This document shows positions 24,442-54,991 of a stretch of 64,000 bases of DNA, piece by piece (the stretch's first letter is position 1; the number at the start of each line of letters is the position of its first letter). This DNA is from Curvularia clavata (Eukaryota). Under the pieces are notes generated by a model. That model did not search any database, had not been told where the DNA came from, and saw nothing but the letters and a program-made list of their open reading frames with translations. The stretch lies in contig CP089274.1 of the NCBI GenBank assembly GCA_023920165.1, positions 434,001-498,000 on the forward strand, written 5' to 3'. Both the position numbers and the translations under genes were made by a program.

Positions 24442-27400
24442 CTATTCGAGCAGAATATCCCTCTCCACTGGCCCTGCGTTCATAAAAGCAGCCACATGAA
24501 TTCTTCCCACCGTCACTCGTTGTGCCACGCCGCCAGCAGAGTCTCGCACAATCATCATCACGTTGAACAGGCCCCATGGCATTGTCTCGTCGTATAAACG
24601 AGTATCAAAGTGAAGCAGCGGATCCACGTGTCCTGTTTCCTCATCCTCGTCCTCTGAGCTCACATGCTGCGTATGAGCAAAAGGCATTGTATACACACTA
24701 CCGAGTTCAGATATGGGAGTAGACGTCAGTAGCTCGCGTCCTATCCGAGGATCGCTGTTGCCGCTGGCACGAGATATGACTATGAACTCGGCTCGATTGT
24801 CATCTCCGACGCTGTCGAAGATATTGTGGTCCCCCTCCGTCATTGTCTCCAGATCTGGCAGGTAGACATAGCCAGCGTAGAAGCCCTCGTTATTTACTAC
24901 TCTTGCGTGGTATACTTTGTGCTTGTAGTCGTGGTTCTCAGCCCGGCGGCGCACGCGTCTGTCAATGCGGAACCGAGCCGATAGCGTGCGAATGTGAAGC
25001 CTGTGCGACGAGTGAAGCGCAATTCGATGGTCTCGATGGAACGCAGGCGCCGCTTCGGATACCGGATGCAGCCAGCGGCGGCCGTTGTCTGCGTCGTCGA
25101 TCCATGTCCAACCACTCTCAGCTTCGTCCACCGTCCAGCGCCCGGCTCGAGCGCGATATGGCATTCGATATTCAGTACCCGTGAGCCATAGATCTTCTTC
25201 ATCAGCGTCTGGATCTGCAAGTAAATTACGCCATAGGAGCGGCGAGCCGAGCTCAGACATGGGATAGGAGCGCTCGATGAGCCACGGCCACGCAGCCTGT
25301 CCGATCCACCCTAGCCAGCTCCAGCTCGGAAAGAGGGCTTTGCCAGTCGTCGTGTCTACTCGTCGTCTGCTCTTGCCGAGAGCGCTCCACATGAGGCTCG
25401 CAGCCAGCTCTGTGTCCGGTAAAGCGTGAACGAATGTTCCACGAAAAAGACCCTGGATTTCATCCAGCACTCCGGCCATCGCCCTCTCAGCATCCTCCTG
25501 AAGCGTGAGGTTTCTAGAGGTATAGTCCATGACTACAACGGCAAATATGTCCATATTGCAGCTTCGCCCGATTTTAGAAACCACTCTATCGTCCTCGCCT
25601 TCATAGAAAAACATGCCGCGGTGGGCAGTTCCCTCATCCCACCATGCATGGCGGCAATTCTCGTCCTCAGCTGTTGATGTATGCCAGCACCACCAGTTAA
25701 CTCCATGGTCTGAAATCTGCAGCTTACGTTGCGATAAGACCTTCTCTTGCATAGTCCACCCGCGGGTGGACCACGTTGACTTCAAGATCTGCTCGCCACA
25801 GGGCAGTATGTTTCCGAGTGCAATGCCGCCCACTACTTGCGCGGCTTGCTTCAGCGTACGTGTATTGTGCTCGATACCGGGAATGCCGTAGTCGGCATCA
25901 TCTCCGCAGCACACACAGACGGTAAGGATGCTATTCTTGTAGACGCGGCCCATCTTGCCAATTTGTGTGGCCTTGTCCACCGGGTCGTCCTGTATAATAC
26001 AAAGAGCATCGACCCACAGGTAACGTTCGCCAATCTGGAGTGTCAATGTGATGGAGTCTCTGATAGTCTTAGGTATTCTGTCCATCAGTGACAGCAAGGC
26101 ACCGGGTTGTGTCATGGCATCGTACGTATCTTTGAGCAATTTGACCTGTTCAGCCTCGCCCCAAGTGTAGCTCAGAGTCACGTATCTGACATTGTGATTG
26201 AGCTCTGTGACGCACATGTTGAACACATCGATTGCCCTCACAGTTGTGGCGTGCTGGTAGGGACTCCTGACGTCTCGCAGATCGCACTGCCTAATAACAT
26301 CTCGAATCCAGTTGAAGTCTATCTGATCGGGCTGGAGGAGCAATCTGCCACAATTTGGGGAATTGCGCACAATCGGGCGGATAGCCATGCTAACTTCCGG
26401 TTTCAGCACAACCGACTGCTTCGATGCAGTGAGCAGGGCTTTGTTCGAACAGAGGTACAGTGCCGGTTGGCAATGTGACGTTTTGAATCGTACGGGGCAT
26501 AATGAATACAAGTCTCCGAATTTGGCACTGATCATCTGGTGGCTGAGAGTGCGCTTTTCGTCTTCATCCATATTTCGTGGAAGATCTTTGACGATATCAA
26601 GTGCGATGATTTTACCAGCGAGCTGACAGAATCCGCAGCCCTGATGCTCTATTATCATTCTTCCCAGCGTCCCGAGCATGATGTAGTCACGCGGTTTGGG
26701 CGGAACTTCAGTCTCCTGTTGCCTGAATAGTGCAATGAAGTTAATGTGCCTGCAGGTTGCGCAGAGATAACCCGGAGTGCCTTGGGGTTCGACATCCGGA
26801 TTCTTGATATACCACATCGGAACCATGCTCGCCGGCATGTAGTCAAAGCGTCGGTTGAGGTTGACTCCGCCGACTGACGTATTTGGTCCAGGATCGATCG
26901 ACCGCATGCTTTCTTGGTTCATATCATTAGTTGGGTAGTCTTCTTCGTCTTCTGATTCGTCAATTGTATGGACAGATGGTGGTGTCGTGCCTCCCACTCT
27001 AAACTTGCTGCCCATGACAAGAGAAGGAGGTCTTATCCGGGATCTGCCTTCGCGGATCTCGTTTAGTACTGAAGCAGGGATCACAATAATCGTTGGTCTG
27101 TCGTCTTCGCTGTCGTCATCTACCGTAACGTATTGTGCGGTGATGTTCCTCTCCTCGCGACTCCTCTGACTCGCACTGGAAGAATATCCACTCTGAACGG
27201 GATGTACCTGAAGGTCGTTTTCACTTATATGCGTAGGATATGCAGATGATTGCAACGGTTGATCGACATAACTCGGTTGTGATCGAGCTTGTTGCTGCTG
27301 TCCTACAGCAGATTGTCCTCGACCATCATTCGTGCGGTGAGGAGGCTGCGCGACGGGCTTTCTGTAACCAAAGGTCGATGATGGGGGAGCCCATCCTTCA

Positions 27401-27705
27401 GGGCCACTCCCACCGCTAGAATGAGGGTGCAAAGCGTATTTTGGTGCTGCAGGACGGACGGTAGGGTTGACCGTAGACGCACTGTAGGCTGGGTAAGCCG
27501 GTCGCCCACTCTGACCTCCCCCGCCTTGCTGCCCGCAGGTTAGATTCGGTGTCTGGACATAATTGTTGGTCGAGTTTACGGAAGAGAGTGTCTCTCCAAG
27601 ATGGTCTGCATATTGCTGTTTGTTCTTCGAACTCCTAGAGAATAGCCCCTTCACTTTTGTGCTGAACGATGTATCGTTACCTCGCGTCTTCCTCAACCGC
27701 GACAT
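24442..27705 (-). CDS. HET-domain (heterokaryon incompatibility, PF06985-type) protein with a long disordered N-terminus
   Basis: Intronless 1087-aa ORF with HET blocks YVTLSYTWG, IPKTIRDSI, RYLWVDALCIIQDD, MGRVY and WSTRGWTMQEKVLS, then YTSRNLT and FPSWSWLGW. CxxC pairs lie upstream of the domain. Confidence 0.9.
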   Translation of the reverse strand: MSRLRKTRGNDTSFSTKVKGLFSRSSKNKQQYADHLGETLSSVNSTNNYVQTPNLTCGQQGGGGQSGRPAYPAYSASTVNPTVRPAAPKYALHPHSSGGSGPEGWAPPSSTFGYRKPVAQPPHRTNDGRGQSAVGQQQQARSQPSYVDQPLQSSAYPTHISENDLQVHPVQSGYSSSASQRSREERNITAQYVTVDDDSEDDRPTIIVIPASVLNEIREGRSRIRPPSLVMGSKFRVGGTTPPSVHTIDESEDEEDYPTNDMNQESMRSIDPGPNTSVGGVNLNRRFDYMPASMVPMWYIKNPDVEPQGTPGYLCATCRHINFIALFRQQETEVPPKPRDYIMLGTLGRMIIEHQGCGFCQLAGKIIALDIVKDLPRNMDEDEKRTLSHQMISAKFGDLYSLCPVRFKTSHCQPALYLCSNKALLTASKQSVVLKPEVSMAIRPIVRNSPNCGRLLLQPDQIDFNWIRDVIRQCDLRDVRSPYQHATTVRAIDVFNMCVTELNHNVRYVTLSYTWGEAEQVKLLKDTYDAMTQPGALLSLMDRIPKTIRDSITLTLQIGERYLWVDALCIIQDDPVDKATQIGKMGRVYKNSILTVCVCCGDDADYGIPGIEHNTRTLKQAAQVVGGIALGNILPCGEQILKSTWSTRGWTMQEKVLSQRKLQISDHGVNWWCWHTSTAEDENCRHAWWDEGTAHRGMFFYEGEDDRVVSKIGRSCNMDIFAVVVMDYTSRNLTLQEDAERAMAGVLDEIQGLFRGTFVHALPDTELAASLMWSALGKSRRRVDTTTGKALFPSWSWLGWIGQAAWPWLIERSYPMSELGSPLLWRNLLADPDADEEDLWLTGTEYRMPYRARAGRWTVDEAESGWTWIDDADNGRRWLHPVSEAAPAFHRDHRIALHSSHRLHIRTLSARFRIDRRVRRRAENHDYKHKVYHARVVNNEGFYAGYVYLPDLETMTEGDHNIFDSVGDDNRAEFIVISRASGNSDPRIGRELLTSTPISELGSVYTMPFAHTQHVSSEDEDEETGHVDPLLHFDTRLYDETMPWGLFNVMMIVRDSAGGVAQRVTVGRIHVAAFMNAGPVERDILLE

Positions 27706-29546
27706 TCTTCGCTTCGTGCTAGCACACTTAGGATCTATAATGTTCGAATGGCGGAGCCTGCGTGTACTAATGTACAGATTTGTGGAAACGATGATGTGTG
27801 AAGAATCGAGAAGGTGGTGGTTGAGCTAAGCAGTGGTCAACACCTTGATCCTGGCATGCAGTTGAAGCGAGGGGGCTCCCATTGTCAGGCTGCCATTTCG
27901 GCAACAGACTCTGGGTTTTGAGCCTTTTCTGCCTGACGGGCTTGTGGCTTCTGCGTGCCAAGGGACGTCGCGCAATCGCTGGTTCCAGCCCGTCTAAAGT
28001 TGCGCTTTGCGGAAGGCCAAGTCAGCTCAGACAATAGAAAAAAAGCCACACTTGTTTCTTTTAGAGATGGTTCCGTATCGGTATAGCCTATGGTGTCGTA
28101 CTGGCCATGATAGGATACAGCGAAATCTTGCATCTGGGTTGCGAACACGGAGAAACTCATAGATATCACGAAAATAACCTATGTCGCCGTAGCATCCCAG
28201 CACCATATGATTCTATGCCCAAACCCACGTTTTGGGCGCACGAAGTTCCTGTTAACCGTCTCAGACGTGCTGAAGCAGAAGTCGCTATGTATGCTAGCCT
28301 TTGAGGTCGGCAACGAAATGATCGACAGTGCCAGTAGCTGGATCACAGGTTGCGTTACTATGTGCTTATACTTAACAAGAACCATCTGTGGAACAGTGTC
28401 TTATAATGGAATTTTAGGCAAGTAAATGAAACAGCGAGTTTTGGAATTCAGTGTTTGAAATCGACTCACTACGTTGTGTGTCTTGCTTCGCAGTGGGTAA
28501 CCTTATTCTAGGGCAGTTTTCAGCTGTAGACTTGGCTTGATATCCAATATGGCTTCCATTGGTTAGATTGTTAGTCAAAATCTTAGTTCGGAGTAAATTA
28601 TACGCTACTTGTGTTGCAGCTGCGGGGTCCATCCCGCAGCTGGAACGAGAAGCTGCTTCGATCTCAGGAACTGACTAGAGTGGCAATCATTTATAAATAA
28701 GCGCACGACGATCGCCATAGGACTAATATTAGTTTCTTACTTCCATAGCGAAATCTGAATATCCAGGGTTGGGTACAGCGCTGCATAGCATAGGCTTGGA
28801 CTTTAGTACTGCATAGAGCGCGCAGGCAACAACAAATTATATTTTTTATATTTTCAATGACAAGAGCAGGACATAGTAGACTCAGAAAATCTAGAGAGAA
28901 GATCATAGACAAATCCGATGCACTTGGAGAATTGAAGCTGCTTAATCTCGAAGTATTTGCAGTCCGTCATGTGACGGTGTGCGTCCCGTGATCCAGAGGC
29001 GGACGTTGTAGTGATCGTTGTATCAAAGCATCAAATGAGCGTGTGGAACACATGAAAAGTGAAATGATTGTTTGTTCAATTTGCATCGAGATATATTGAC
29101 CGTTGCCATCGTACCGATAACAAGCTTTTCGTCCAACAGTCCTGACATTGTGCGTGCATAATGACGGTGATAGCTTGCAATTTATCATCCATCCTAAGAT
29201 CAGTAATGTATATGGGGTCAAAGTCGTGGCGATATTCATTATGTGAATGGGGTCCAGTTGAGGGGATGTAGAGTTCTCTGCTTCGTAGGAAGTACCAGCA
29301 TTCCATATATGGGTTCAGCAGCAAGCTCGTCAGCAACTTCGCTGTTTTGAAGAATCATGTAAACCAAAAGAGTGCGGTTATCAGTAAATGGATAGCCAGC
29401 ATGGGGGTGGTGCGATATGATGATCCTAGGTGAAGCCTACCATTGTCAATGATACCGCGTGAGTTTAACAAAGCTGCAGTACCAAAGCAACAAAGAAACG
29501 GCATAGTAAACTACAGAATATTTCATCTATGAAACAATCTCCATCT

Positions 29547-48881: not shown

Positions 48882-51521
48882 CTATTCGGTCTCCCACTCC
48901 TCTAAGGCTTCTAACGAGGCCTGAACTTCGGGGTGGCTAGTTTTCTGTACTTGCTGACGCTGCTGTAAACACTGTCTCATTAAGACCACAGCATCTGCTG
49001 TCCGACCTTGTGCTTTCCATGTGTAGGCCAGGTTGTGCATGCAATTTAATGTAAAGGGATGGTCTACTCCAAGCTTCGTTTTGGAAGTCTCCATCACCTG
49101 CACCTGTAGTGTCTCAGCCTCGTCTAACCGGCCTTGGTCCCGATATGTCGACGCTAGGTTGGCTATACTCCTTAGCGTTTCTGGATGGTCTACTCCGAGC
49201 TTCGTCTTGCGAGTCTCTAACACCTGCACTAAAAGCGCCTCAGCCTCGTCTAACCGGCCTTGGTTCCGGTATGTCGACGCTAGGTTGGCTATGCTCATCA
49301 GCGTATCTGGATGGTCTGTTCCGAGTTTCGTCTTGAAAGTCTCCATCACCTGCACGCCTAGCACCTCAGCCTCGTCTAATCGGCCTTGGTTCCAGTATAC
49401 TAATGCCAGGTTGTGCATGCTAGTCAGCGTTCCTAGATGATCTACTCCAAGCTTCGTCTTGGAAGTCTCTAGCACCTGCACATACAACGCCTCAGCCTCG
49501 TCTAACCGGCCTTGGTTCCAGTGTATTAACGCTAGGTTGGCTATACTCATCAGCGTGTCTGGATGGTCTATTCCAAGCTTCGTCTTACGAGTCTCCATCA
49601 CCTGCACGTCCAGCGCCTCAGCCTCGTCAAACCGGCCTTGTTCCCGATATGTCGACGCTAGGTTGGCTATACTTCTCAGCGCTTCTGGATGGTCTGCTCC
49701 AAGCTTTGTTTTAAGAGTCTCCATCACCTGCACCTGCAGCTTCTCCGCATCGTCCCATCGCCCCCCAAGTTTGTATGCTAATCCAACCATGCCTACACTC
49801 TCTAGCGTGTTCTCGTGTTCTCGCCCTAGCACCTTCTTCCGCGCCTTCATTGATTGTAGAGCAAGGGTCTCTGCCTCAGCTGCGTTCCCTTTCTCGTATG
49901 CATACCATGATGCTCGATAAAGTAAAGTCGCCCATTCCACTAGTAACGACTTCTCTTCTGGCTGCTGCGCCATAGCAGATTTTGCGTGTGCATACAGCGC
50001 CTGGCATGTTGGCCAGTTTTCATACTCCCCTGTCGGAAATGCTGCGCAGAGGTTGCTAATAAACCGCTGCTTCCACCATTCAAGTTTGCCGTTCGCCGCA
50101 AGCCACTTGCGCATTGCAAGCTGTACGAGTCTGTGCATTTGAAATGTGGCGCCATCTTCCACGATAGATATGAAACAAAGATTACGGAGCGCTATAACAT
50201 CGTTCTCGAATCTGTCCTCTCTGCTATTGGATTGCGCCTCATCTTGCTGAGCGGTAGGCTTACTTCTAGTACGGCGCAGTAGATGTTTGAAATGCGTCTT
50301 TAATGATTTTTTCTGCCTGACGGAATGACTGCTTGCCCTATTTGTCTTCTGAGCGTCATGTATAAGCGATTCGGGAATGCCCTGCCGGTCGAAGAAGCTC
50401 ATGAGCGACAACAAGTCTGCCGCCGATGGCTTTGTCTGCCGCAGATGCTCAAAGGATATCTGCCACGTAATGATGATCGAATTCTTAGCCTCTCGGTCTC
50501 GTCGAAGCTGTCCTGCTTCACAGGCTAGCAAACTCGTCTTTCCATGGTCGCTACGCCGAAACTCGTCAAGGTATTGTACTGAGGAGCAGCGAGGCTTTCT
50601 TTCAGAAATGTACGCAGCAGCCTGCACAATGGCGAGCGGCATGTTCTCCAGCGCCGCCACAAGATCAGCAATACTGTTCCTGTCGTTGTCCTCCCGCGCT
50701 CCCAGCTTCTTCTCGAACAGCGCTATCCCTTCGGCTTTGTCCATTGGCTCTACAAAGACGATGTCGCGCTGCTCCACCAGCTTCAGTGCAGCTTCCTTAT
50801 TCCGCGTCGTGACGAGGATCGAGCCATGATCGCAGTGAGGGAGGTGCTCGCGCAGCGGTGGGTCAGTCCCACTCGCATCACCAGTCTGACCTTGACGACC
50901 AGTCCTATTTTCAAGTAGAAAGCGAGGATCGTCCACGTTGTCTAGCACGAGCAGCCACCGGTGCTTGCTACTGCACAGCCAGTCGTGCACCAGCTTGAAG
51001 ATGTTGGCCTGTGGGTCTTGTCGCCCATAGATCTTGACCCGGTCGGCGATATCGCGGAAGCCCTGCTCAAACCGGGCCGCGTTGCTGGCATGCACCCAGA
51101 ACACCCAAGTCTCGGGCGACCGCTCGCGCGTGCGGTAGGCATACTCAATAGCAAGCTGCGACTTGCTTCTCTGCTATCAGCATGCGGTGCTAGATGAGCA
51201 GGCATGTGCTTACCCTACGCCGCCAAGGCCGACAAGCGCAGCCCGCGCATTTGGCGCAGCGCATATCTGGTCGACCTGATCGAGTATCGTGCCGCGCTCG
51301 ACAAAGTCAGCATCACGGGCGAACGGTATTAGGATCGATGGGGGTGGTGGAGTCTCTTGTCGCTCTTAAGGCGGGGTGTGTTAGTACTTGCTGAGGCCTG
51401 CACATCTAGAGTAGTCCTGCAACTCACCAAGTGGCAGGTGGAATGTAGCATCGACGTTGCCGTTGATGATACCGCCCTGGATACCATAGTTCTTATCGCG
51501 AAAGGATACCGTTGATGCCAT
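48882..51521 (-). CDS. Fungal NLR-like STAND protein: N-terminal amyloid signalling motif, NB-ARC and TPR repeats (about 842 aa, 3 exons)
   Basis: Exons 51428-51521, 51214-51364 and 48882-51165. Spliced MASTVSFRDKNYGIQGGIINGNVDATFHLPL|ERQETPPPPS..IPFARDADFVER..Walker A GLGGVG|KSQLA, FWVHAS, Walker B LLVLDNVDD, ILVTTR, PLAIVQAAAYI, MHRLVQ, then 42-aa TPRs. Confidence 0.92.
49000..49830. repeat. TPR-encoding tandem array, 126-bp unit, about 6-7 copies with high internal DNA identity
   Basis: The anchor gtctccatcacctgcac occurs at 49087, 49339, 49591 and 49717, all multiples of 126 apart. Protein unit approximately DHPxTLxSIANLAxxYxxQGRLDEAEALxVQVMETxKTKLG. Confidence 0.92.
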
Positions 51522-51751
51522 GATACTGCAGGAGAACTGCGGTGTACAGTACTGCGAGATCTCAGATGGGCTTCAGCCTGGCGGCTTGCTGGCAGGACTC
51601 TCAGCCCCTACTTGGCAACCTTAATGCTACTAAAACCAATTGCTTTACGCCTCAGCTGAGGATGTCTCTTCCGTATTTCCTCTGTTCATAGCATCAGTTC
51701 TGCTATAGTCGCCTCTCGACTCGTTTTTCTTTGATTTCTGCCAAACACAAG

Positions 51752-52655
51752 ATGACGGATCCTTTCAGTACTACTGCTGGTGTCGTGGGTATCACTGTGG
51801 CAGCCTTGCACGGCATACGCCTACTTATAGAAGACTTGCAGCAGCTCAAGCAGGCTCCCAAAACTATCAAACGCCTCTTAGCAGATATGCAGTCAGTCGA
51901 AACGTCGCTCAAACTGCTTCAAGATGTCGGAGAGAGAGAATGGGATCTCCTTGGCGCAAGCATCCTAGAAGACTCAAAGACGACGATTAGCAGCTGCATG
52001 CAAGCATGCCGTCTGTTCAAGTCCGACCTCCAGCGCTGGACTCGACACTCTGAAGGCGGAAAACTGACGTGGCAGGATCGAGCAAGCGTCGGATTCTTTA
52101 AGCAAGGGCAGGTCAAGGCTATGTCAGAGCAGCTTCAGAACTGCAAGCTCTCGATCAATTTAGTCATAAGTATAGGGACGTTGTGAGTGGCTACATATAT
52201 ACTTCTGTTGTGCCATTTTTAGGCTGACCTTTCTTTGTAGGTATAGCTCTGTTCGCCATACCCATATAACGGAAGAGGTCAGGAAAACCATGTCTCTCGT
52301 ACAGGCCGAGGTGAAGGGTGCTATTTCCACAACAGACAAGCAGCTGGTGGTACTAGAGAGCCAGTTGAAAGAGCTGGATCTTAGCAGCGATGATGATGAG
52401 GAGGCCGGAGATAATGAAGGTAAAGCTGCGGCAATGCAACAGTTAGAAGAAGAGCGTAAAGCGCTCGAAGCATCGCGCACGCTCTTGGATAAGCTGATAG
52501 CAAAAGCACAAGAAGATGCTGTTGCCAAAGCTAGTACAAAGAGCCAGGATCATTCAACCACTGTGACTACAGTGACGTTTGGTGATGGGAACTCTGGCCT
52601 ACAGACTGGCGTCCTCCATGGAGGAGTCCATGGGGCTGTGTTTGGGCAGAAATAA
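51752..52655 (+). CDS. HeLo-like/SesA-type cell-death effector with C-terminal amyloid signalling motif (281 aa, 2 exons)
   Basis: Exons 51752-52182 and 52241-52655 (GTGAGT...CTGAC...TAG intron). N-terminus MTDPFSTTAGVVGITVAALHGIRLLIEDLQQLKQAP is typical of Helo_like_N/SesA helical domains. C-terminus TVTFGDGNSGLQTGVLHGGVHGAVFGQK. Confidence 0.85.
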
Positions 52656-54991
52656 GTATATGTACATGGGGCTATAGTGGAGGGATAGTACCCTAAGTCA
52701 ACAAGGGTCTTTGAACATGCACAAAGGTGAGAGCGGTTTTGCAACCTACTGTACCACGTATTGCGATACGAATATGACTTGTCTAAAAAAGGCACAAAGT
52801 TGTCCGTGTAAGAACTTGCCTTATTTAGAAGTGACTTTACGGGCTGCGAGCGGTGGTCAAACAGGCCCAGGTTAGCGAGAATACGATACAGACGTGGCCA
52901 GAGGAGATGAAAGCAACTAGCCGAATACAGCAACTGTCTATTCAGGAATCTGGACGGCGACGTGGGATGTGGTTGATATCACCACTTGATAGATGAGCCA
53001 AGCCTCCAGAAGGACATTAGACGGTCGGTGCTTGGCACGTGCTAGGTAGAGTGGATTGGCTTGTAGCTGCAACGGAATTTGTCACTCTTCCAGGAAGCGG
53101 TGAAGAGCAGGGAGCTGAGTTATATGTAGGGTTCTCGACCACGACTTCCTAATCAGCAAACAGTCGAATCACAGGAGCGGTGTGGGTCCTGGATGGTAGT
53201 CGCGCAATGCCCTACGGTATGTTTTTTGATCAGGCGTGGGATAGAGTAGGAAAATCTCTTGAGGCGCTGTACTAGAGCCGTGGATTGTGGCCAGATGGCG
53301 CAACACTAGGTTGTGCGAGGCGTCGAACACGCGCATGTCTAGTGATGCAGCAAGGGGAAAAAGAAGTGCATATGGATAAAGCTTTTTCGATGCAAAAGCG
53401 CACGCGGGAGTTGAATGTGAGTGCCGCTGCAGTGGTGGTTGGACAGGGCAAGGCGGGAGGCGCTTGGGCCCGCTAGCGTCGTCGACGGCTATGAGATTTG
53501 GAATACCACGCAGTCCCGAGCGCATGGTAATCGTCGACAATGATGCGCCCATCTCCTCCCACACGGGCTTGGGGCGTTTCTCGAGCAATCTAGTATTTGT
53601 CAAACACTGCTTCGGTTTCCGACTTGATGGCATCCGGTGTCCGCCATTCTGGGTAGCCTGCCCGTTGCCGTCATGTTGCCACTCGTCCATTGGTGGGTTA
53701 CCGGTGTCCACCAACCTTGCATGCTTTTGCGCTTCCATGAATAGTCTACTGGCGTACATGGCTGACCGCTTTCCTTGTGCAGCGAGTCTTGTTGTTTCGT
53801 CGCAGGGCTCGATATCTCAAACACGTAATTTGAATGGAGCCGCCGCCCGGCAGGCTTGCCATGCCGGAACATGTTTCGGACTACATGACTCCGCACGTAC
53901 GCAGTATTTGTTGTAAATAGATAAGCATCTAATGTGACAAATTCATTCAAGCCGTATATCTTTCTGCAAAGGGCCACATTTTCCACTCCATTCAATCGTG
54001 TCGTCAATCGTCAAATTCAAACCTTGGTACCATCTCCACTTCCACAACGCCAATGAACCCCGTGTCTCTTCACCAGTCGTCACATCCCTTTCTGACGCCT
54101 ACGCGTGCGTCGGACATTTCGACATGGACATTGTCGGTCCCAGAGCGAAACTCAGTCTCGTCCACCGAGTCCGAGACCCGGTCCCGCGAGGCTGCTATTG
54201 AAGCCTACCGACAGATGAAAGCCGCCCTCTTCTCGAGGTCTCTCCAATCAACTCTCTCCCGCTCTAATTGAGCGCCGCTTACGCCGCCGAGAAATCACAA
54301 CAGCACCGTTTTAGCGGATCGCTGCGTTACGAATTACGAAGTACAAATTATTAGCACGACATGTTATGAACCGAGGTTATCCTCCAAAACACGAGTCTCG
54401 GCAGGCTAAAGTCTCGAATAAATCTCAGGGCGTTATATACAACCAGCCATCTCTTAGGATCTTTTAGGGTCCTTGCAGGAATGAATCCATTATACCTTGG
54501 TGGCCGGTGTTTGGAGTATGTGATATGTAACTAGAACAAGTTTTTCCTTTGCTGTCTGGGTTTCGGGTTAATTCAATGCGTAATAACAGGCCTCAACTCG
54601 CGGCGCTATTTCTTAATATCCCTTAATATAGTCACATGTGCCACATGGATTACCAACTCGAAGTTGTTCCCGTGAATGACATCTCATTCAGCACATGTTT
54701 GACTATCCTTGCTGTTGTTTGGAGATCGACCCAAGGGGTTACACGCCGACAAGAACGGGAATGATGGTTACACTCATCGATCAAAAAACCCAGCCGCTTG
54801 GCTGGATAGGCTAATGTGTGTGCGTGCGTGCCTGGCAGGTTGCATCATAACCATATCCGCTTATCGATAGACCATGGCCCGTGCACCAAAAGTTGGTTGA
54901 ACGCGACTGCGAAAACACGATCAGATAACTTTACTGCAATCACGCTTCACCTCACCACAAAAATACAGGACGCCAAAGCTGCGCTGCAAAT

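Follow-up and report, generated by a model that had tools for sequence, protein, structure and literature searches.

Do two genes that diverge from a short spacer in Curvularia clavata, one coding for a nucleotide-binding oligomerization domain-like receptor (NLR) and the other for a HeLo-like protein, form a cell-death module in which the receptor activates its neighbor through an amyloid motif common to both? They occupy positions 48,882 to 52,655 of a 64,000-nucleotide stretch of contig CP089274.1 (positions 434,001 to 498,000 of the forward strand), which is called the window below. The answer is very probably yes, and the pair is best described as a cell-death module of the PNT1/HELLP type, made up of one NLR gene and one effector gene; this type is defined by a shared pseudopalindromic (PP) motif. 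A preliminary description, made from the letters of the DNA alone, had already taken the locus for an intact two-gene module of programmed cell death. Domains, motif placement, introns and linkage all support this reading, and the function would follow by homology. The gene models and the elements on which the argument relies are, in window coordinates:

51521 to 48882, minus strand: NLR gene, three exons, 842-residue NB-ARC/TPR product
51428..51521, minus strand: NLR exon 1, 31 codons plus one base; contains the start codon and all of the N-terminal PP-type motif
51453..51515, minus strand: NLR-side PP motif, residues 3-23 (S-T-V-S-F-R-D-K-N-Y-G-I-Q-G-G-I-I-N-G-N-V)
51365..51427, minus strand: NLR intron 1, 63 nt, GT..AG, beginning at nucleotide 95 of the open reading frame (ORF); contig joint 51364->51428
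51214..51364, minus strand: NLR exon 2, proline-rich linker and start of the NB-ARC domain
51166..51213, minus strand: NLR intron 2, 48 nt, splitting the Walker A codons; contig loose ends at 51166 and 51214
48882..51165, minus strand: NLR exon 3, remainder of the NB-ARC domain, linker and TPR domain; stop codon 48882-48884
49057..49733, minus strand: tandem TPR_10-type units of 126 bp (42 residues), 5.4 copies, 81% matches at the DNA level
51522..51751, no strand: 230-bp spacer between the divergent start codons, holding the palindrome CCTCAGCTGAGG at 51650-51661
51752 to 52655, plus strand: effector gene, two exons, 281-residue product
51752..52182, plus strand: effector exon 1, HeLo-like (HELL) domain PF17111; 143 codons
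52183..52240, plus strand: effector intron, 58 nt, GT..AG, beginning at ORF nucleotide 432; contig joint 52182->52241
52241..52655, plus strand: effector exon 2, helical linker, acidic stretch and C-terminal PP motif; stop codon 52653-52655
52566..52628, plus strand: effector-side PP motif, residues 253-273 (T-T-V-T-F-G-D-G-N-S-G-L-Q-T-G-V-L-H-G-G-V)

The receptor has the build of a signaling ATPase that carries nothing but a short motif at its N-terminus. Its product matches the NB-ARC family with 30.9 bits (cut-off 23.5), TPR_10 with 294.5 bits and TPR_12 with 271.1 bits, and six TPR units of 42 residues can be anchored on LGxDH. The Walker A sequence GLGGVGKS (residues 77-84) is restored because the second intron is spliced out; it is followed by the Walker B sequence LLVLDNVDD at 153, TTR at 198 and MHRL at 425, and the predicted reading frame is intact, with all ATPase motifs. 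Before the P-loop at residue 77 only the short motif is found, and no Pfam family matches exon 1 or exon 2, which bears out the earlier claim that the spliced NLR is devoid of an N-terminal effector domain. The same description had called the NLR side of the pair hidden. This did not stand: the 842-residue product is letter-for-letter the database protein P0044, deposited in GenBank as "TPR domain protein [Curvularia clavata]", and this model already includes the motif exon.

The neighboring protein qualifies as a HeLo-like effector, as had been proposed, since its residues 2-139 match PF17111 (E=8.4e-17, 61.7 bits, cut-off 27.2). The present name of this family is PigL_N, and its accession is the one given as Helo_like_N in the excerpted text of PMC9815663. 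Hydrophobicity, taken over stretches of 19 residues, peaks at residues 8-26, and the excerpted text of PMC7885112 describes the membrane-inserting helix of HeLo-type domains at that N-terminal place. The splice model is supported by end-to-end alignment with annotated 281-residue orthologues from other Pleosporales, with 76-78% identity over 281 columns. Within the Sordariales, the closest homologue seen is P0041 from Corynascus (Chaetomiaceae), with 42.5% identity over 280 columns. No 100% match to the effector was found among the collected proteins of at least 252 residues, and the unspliced 144-residue ORF is likewise absent from the collection.

The fold was approached through an AlphaFold2 model of the orthologue P0001, not of the window protein itself, built with 38 aligned homologues (mean predicted local distance difference test score 71.9). 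This model is nearly all helix up to about residue 246-250, and the motif region is of low confidence. When it was compared with 48161 chains by an exhaustive aligner, the 30 best matches included the four-helix bundle of MLKL (4btf, Z 10.4, root-mean-square deviation 2.4 over 98 residues; 6ux8, Z 9.8) as well as the coiled-coil domain of potato Rx (4m70, Z 10.7) and the CC-R domain of NRG1 (7l7v, Z 9.3). These matches fit the relationship between HeLo-like domains and four-helix bundles that has been published (PMC7885112 and PMC9815663, both in excerpt).

What joins the two proteins is the motif at their facing termini. The two segments quoted in the preliminary description were recovered as written, and their ungapped alignment over 20 residues, read directly from the sequences, has the 10 identities claimed. 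The best ungapped segment pairs NLR residues 3-23 with effector residues 253-273, with 10 of 21 positions identical and a BLOSUM62 score of 56. In 1000 shuffles of the NLR N-terminus the score averaged 22 (standard deviation 3.7, maximum 38), and 0/1000 reached 56. When the 64-kb window was translated in six frames, the pattern N.G[ILVM]Q.G turned up at exactly two sites, the NLR N-terminus and the effector C-terminus. Profiles were also made from the motifs of other species (60 from the NLR side, 33 from the effector side) and run against 1885 six-frame peptides of the window. The NLR-side profile detected NLR exon 1 (E=7.7e-11) and the C-terminal ORF of the effector (E=6.4e-8), followed by nothing better than E=2.5; the effector-side profile detected the effector (E=4.9e-13) and NLR exon 1 (E=8e-6), with the next match at E=1.5. 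If the core N is numbered 0, so that Q stands at +4, then N0, G2, Q4, G6 and G10 are retained in both window motifs, and the same residues are found in 32-34 of the 34 effector C-termini of the family. The motif had been introduced as PP/RHIM-like. Both window motifs keep the half N-x-G-x-Q-x-G, but neither has the strict pseudopalindrome or the RHIM tetrad (I/V)-Q-(I/V)-G.

The arrangement is not peculiar to the window. Metagenome contigs were scanned with the effector alignment, which yielded 63 loci, 35 of them eligible in that they contain the effector N-terminus and at least 400 bp upstream. A divergent NLR lies upstream in 26 of these 35, recognized in 24 by the start of an ORF with the PP motif and in two by an NB-ARC match whose motif the pattern did not recognize. 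The remaining nine consist of one tandem arrangement (L049), one fusion-like locus (L026) and seven loci in which no NLR was seen. From start codon to start codon the gaps measure 157-381 bp with a median of 230 (n=27); the gap in the window, for which the gene models confirm the 230 bp first noted, is 230 bp as well. Furthermore, the linked motifs vary together. In 16 distinct linked pairs, that of the window included, an 18-residue frame holds 175 identities, compared with 144±6.4 after permutation of the partners, and 0/100000 permutations reached 175. The eight residues past Q, taken alone, hold 79 identities as opposed to 54 in permuted pairs (0/20000). Three motif subclasses recur on both partners, namely Q-A-G-φ-I-N-G, Q-[IV]-G-x-S-x-x-P-I and Q-Q-V-G-V-N-x-G-T-I. 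As read from the motifs, this co-variation is a matter of few coordinated shifts and not of 16 independent events. The check proposed at the outset, whether orthologous pairs stay adjacent with co-varying motifs, thus turned out in favor of the module.

Some of these loci are organized in other ways. In L049 (3000-5453) an NLR with the PP motif follows in tandem, 200 bp downstream of the effector. In L026 (4001-6023) a HeLo-like region corresponding to query residues 1-234 runs on, without change of strand, into an NB-ARC coding sequence and has the look of a fusion. In L010 (2409-7528) two NLRs with PP motifs flank one effector.

Transcript-like contigs bear on the introns. They stem from two small runs (X1 and X5) and from run X9, all of a relative and not of the source strain, and from run X10; the pieces across the pair differ from the window at roughly 4-7% of letters. 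X10 is labeled a metatranscriptome, the RNA label of the other three is a guess, and X9 and X10 cover parts of the locus only. All three introns are absent from these contigs. Those of X1 and X5 precisely omit 51365-51427 and 52183-52240, each bounded by GT..AG on the strand of its gene, and the second of these gaps recurs in X9. At 51166 and 51214, loose ends of contigs (X1, X5 and X9) cross the joint of the 48-nt intron, which is thereby seen to be removed, and a loose end in the X10 contig runs from 52182 into effector exon 2. Because they contain joined forms lacking introns, the contigs of X1, X5 and X9 appear to derive from RNA. Single contigs of X1 (record 6) and X5 (record 15) span 51267-52661 and thus reach from NLR exon 2 via exon 1 and the spacer through the two exons of the effector; they lack the introns of either strand. 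This suggests that the 5' ends of the divergent transcripts overlap in the spacer, although a two-gene contig does not prove a single transcript.

The spacer presumably is a shared promoter. At 51650-51661, about 100 bp before the effector ATG, it holds the 12-bp palindrome CCTCAGCTGAGG, also written TCAGCTGA. The hexamer CAGCTG, mostly in the form TCAGCTG, is present in 9 of the 24 distinct NLR-HELLP spacers, compared with 1.2 expected from shuffles, and in seven of these nine it lies 83-117 bp ahead of the effector start. Besides the window, the spacers concerned are those of L010, L016, L018, L020, L040, L042, L044 and L048. The element may serve both genes as a common regulatory site in a bidirectional promoter.

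How far does the family extend? Among 43 effector homologues of at least 252 residues, N.G.Q.G is present in 37, located C-terminally in 35 and internally in two, which are aberrant gene models; the other six comprise four near variants, one truncated and one aberrant sequence. Judged by name, the effector homologues belong to Dothideomycetes, Leotiomycetes, Lecanoromycetes and Sordariomycetes. An effector profile run against 1.84 billion cluster representatives returned 1364 clusters at E<=0.001, 600 at E<=1e-10 and 157 at E<=1e-30. The ten named representatives of 50% clusters are from Xylaria, Fusarium, Penicillium and others, with no Podospora among the ten. Of 147 newly returned representatives, 35 are 138-148 residues long and thus resemble exon 1 (143 codons), and several of those listed end at profile position 144. 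Read as calls of exon 1 only, they are a sign of a conserved intron position. The strict motif is present in just 11 of 35 full-length representatives, and the HeLo-like family therefore seems to be broader than its PP-bearing part. On the receptor side, [NDS].G.Q.G was found within the first 80 residues of 53 of the 120 NLR homologues listed (3687 reach E<=0.001), and many of the listed homologues that lack the motif are fragments starting within the NB-ARC domain.

Several HeLo-like relatives of about 300 residues (P0252, P0259, P0262, P0279, P0297 and P0300) end not in a PP motif but in a G-rich tail (e.g., ...RGGRGI-VG-A-G-...-F-F), which, by its sequence, may represent another class of amyloid signaling motif. 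Many database entries are approximately of exon length and apparently cut at the conserved introns (collected as P0001-P0043, P0044-P0163 and P0165-P0311). Public names are of little help. Effector homologues appear under 'Cytochrome P450' and under 'azaphilone pigments biosynthesis cluster protein L N-terminal domain-containing', and NLR homologues go by 'kinesin light chain', 'TPR domain protein' and similar names.

Among characterized systems, the closest counterpart is the PNT1/HELLP pair of Podospora anserina (Bardin et al., 2021, mBio, PMC7885112), which is compared here from excerpts of its published description. PNT1 is an NB-ARC/TPR NLR of 971 residues, of which residues 1-31 form a prion and activate HELLP. 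The latter, 271 residues long, has a HeLo-like domain, and its C-terminal PP motif forms the [π] prion. Both pairs thus combine an NB-ARC/TPR receptor with repeated TPR units, whose N-terminal motif here corresponds to the prion region of about 31 residues in PNT1, and an adjoining HeLo-like protein of about 270-280 residues with a C-terminal PP motif. Both are two-gene clusters with no lipase, as far as the excerpts describe the Podospora locus. The intron positions agree as well. The pnt1 intron occupies ORF nucleotides 95-148 and the hellp intron nucleotides 429-475, so that the first NLR intron begins at nucleotide 95 in both species and the effector intron at 429 in Podospora and 432 in the window. 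Unlike Podospora, a member of the Sordariales, the source of the window belongs to the Pleosporales (by the names of best matches) and thus to a different class. Its NLR is shorter (842 residues) and has a second intron in the P-loop, whereas a single intron is reported in the excerpts for PNT1. In addition, the distal N of the window NLR is shifted by one residue (NxGxQxGxxN), and the window effector has H instead.

Other systems share parts of this plan. The CgPNT1/CgHELLP/CgSBP cluster of Chaetomium globosum (Daskalov et al., 2016, as cited in excerpts of PMC7885112 and PMC5485727) likewise has PP motifs on an NB-ARC/TPR NLR and a HeLo-like executioner, but it includes a third PP gene, the SBP lipase, whereas the core motif occurs only twice in the 64-kb window. 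NWD2/HET-S and FNT1/HELLF are built alike, with neighboring genes for an NLR and for a HeLo or HeLo-like effector whose products have an amyloid motif in common at their termini. There, however, the effector carries two 21-residue HET-s-related amyloid motif repeats that form a β-solenoid (PMC4518210; PMC7885112, in excerpt), as opposed to the single PP-type copy on each window protein, and NWD2 is of NACHT/WD and not of NB-ARC/TPR architecture. According to the excerpted text of PMC7885112, the PP motif does not cross-seed with motifs of the HET-s type. The RHIM of RIP1 and RIP3 has the G-x-Q-x-G core in common with the window motifs, but its own core is G-(I,V)-Q-(I,V)-G, where the window NLR has I-Q-G-G and the effector L-Q-T-G. 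Mammals differ further in that the amyloid motif resides on the kinases upstream of MLKL and not on the executioner (PMC5485727, in excerpt).

If the pair works like its characterized relatives, the receptor would sense a ligand via its TPR repeats and oligomerize through the NB-ARC ATPase. Oligomerization would gather the N-terminal PP motifs of 20-30 residues into an amyloid nucleus, and this nucleus would template the homologous C-terminal motif of the neighboring 281-residue protein. The HeLo-like domain would then refold and expose its hydrophobic N-terminal helix (approximately residues 8-26), reach the plasma membrane and kill the cell. We infer amyloid formation, receptor-to-effector seeding, membrane targeting and killing from the experiments in Podospora and Chaetomium (PMC7885112, in excerpt).

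Several points weigh against the assignment to a working PNT1/HELLP-type module. The fold matches of the P0001 model all have Z values below approximately 13, the level that the tool calls decisive for helical bundles; Foldseek retrieved no match from the PDB at E<=0.001, and a sequence-profile search of the PDB nothing below E=0.17. The motifs depart from the strict form NxGxQxGxN, as worded in the excerpted PMC9815663, because the distal N of the NLR stands at +9 and not at +8 and the effector has H at +9. An N at +9 is, on the other hand, usual among relatives (51 of the 61 motifs on the NLR side, 22 of the 34 on the effector side), and in sequence terms the shift is a spacing variant that keeps the half N-x-G-x-Q-x-G. 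The permutation test on the 16 pairs takes no account of shared ancestry, and a first set of nine annotated pairs on the same contig gave a weak signal, with 1647/20000 permutations reaching the identity sum and 436/20000 the BLOSUM sum. Evidence for splicing comes from a relative and from runs with a guessed RNA label. The two motifs of this particular pair are identical at 8 of 18 positions; tied with L028/L029, it is the least similar of the 16 linked pairs, and its own partner has rank 10 of 16. On the NLR side, R occupies -3 (1 of 61 relatives; G in 50) and G occupies +5 (2 of 61; A in 53), and the effector motif has rarities of its own (G at -1 in 1 of 34, L at +8 in 1 of 34 and T at +5 in 3 of 34). 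Moreover, P0076, a second NB-ARC/TPR NLR of C. clavata with an N-terminal PP motif, encoded on another contig and 58.7% identical to the window NLR, agrees with the effector motif at 10 of 18 positions (BLOSUM 61), compared with 8 of 18 (BLOSUM 46) for the linked receptor.

This divergence could mean that the two partners have moved to a private amyloid specificity, which would insulate their receptor-executioner channel from the other NLR paralogues with PP motifs in the same genome. The L048 NLR, among the closest relatives sampled, reads F-G-D-A-N-A-G-F-Q-A-G where the window NLR reads F-R-D-K-N-Y-G-I-Q-G-G, and the flank I-I-N-G-N-V-D-A-T-F-H is identical in both. We regard such a shift as rather unlikely. 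If it were true, fungal genomes could run several orthogonal PP channels by tuning few motif residues, and the subclass co-variation across the metagenome pairs would be its wider signature. Alternatively, the pair may belong to the PNT1/HELLP family but with a linked receptor that seeds the effector poorly or no longer, its motif drifting or becoming private, so that unlinked PP-motif NLR paralogues drive the effector in a scheme of many receptors and one executioner. The low identity and rank of the linked partner, the rare residues at -3 and +5 and the better match of P0076 all point in this direction, and a review (PMC5485727, in excerpt) puts forward that different NLRs can act on one and the same effector. 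However, the five core residues are kept on both sides, the cross-profile matches are still significant, the predicted NLR reading frame with its ATPase motifs has remained intact, and L028/L029, also a linked pair, is no more similar. In addition, P. anserina and C. globosum have PP prions that cross-seed each other, and cross-seeding of these with human RHIM prions is partial (PMC7885112, in excerpt); seeding therefore tolerates considerable divergence. On balance we hold the weakened link to be distinctly unlikely. With the invariant positions all kept, weakened coupling and private specificity are minority possibilities.

A different role for the pair, or for the effector, would be recruitment for allorecognition: allelic variants in the population would bring about heterokaryon incompatibility, as in het-s/het-S, in place of a reaction to non-self organisms. 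Such a module is the origin of the het-s system (PMC7885112, in excerpt), and other genes of the incompatibility type exist in the region: a 1127-codon ORF with a HET domain (PF06985, E=4.1e-31) lies on the minus strand at 24442-27825, so that a gene of a cell-death type is found 21 kb from the pair. This HET-domain gene is mechanistically unrelated, however, and the N-terminal hydrophobic helix of the effector looks intact; we regard a role in allorecognition as very improbable. Finally, the shared motif, short and rich in G, N and Q as it is, has next to no chance of being an accidental or low-complexity resemblance between mere neighbors, an explanation that was rejected because the shuffles, the six-frame motif count and the independent profiles that cross-detect both termini contradict it, the pairing recurs at 26 of 35 loci and linked motifs co-vary.

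The PNT1/HELLP-type module that we favor raises no new question on how such systems work. The class had been called known and the pair with its motif variant possibly uncharacterized; the former holds, and the pair belongs to a large described family and is not new in kind. Four observations are possibly new, although no literature search was aimed at them and they may already be in print: the recurrent divergent arrangement of about 230 bp in metagenome fungal contigs, together with motif-bearing homologues named from several ascomycete classes; the apparent conservation of both intron positions; the subclass co-variation of linked motifs; and the TCAGCTG element recurring near -100. Because public gene names mislead, modules of the PNT1/HELLP type appear to have been overlooked in annotation. 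With the pair described here, a plant-associated fungus of the Pleosporales joins the species that have an apparently intact and transcribed necroptosis-like module of this type.

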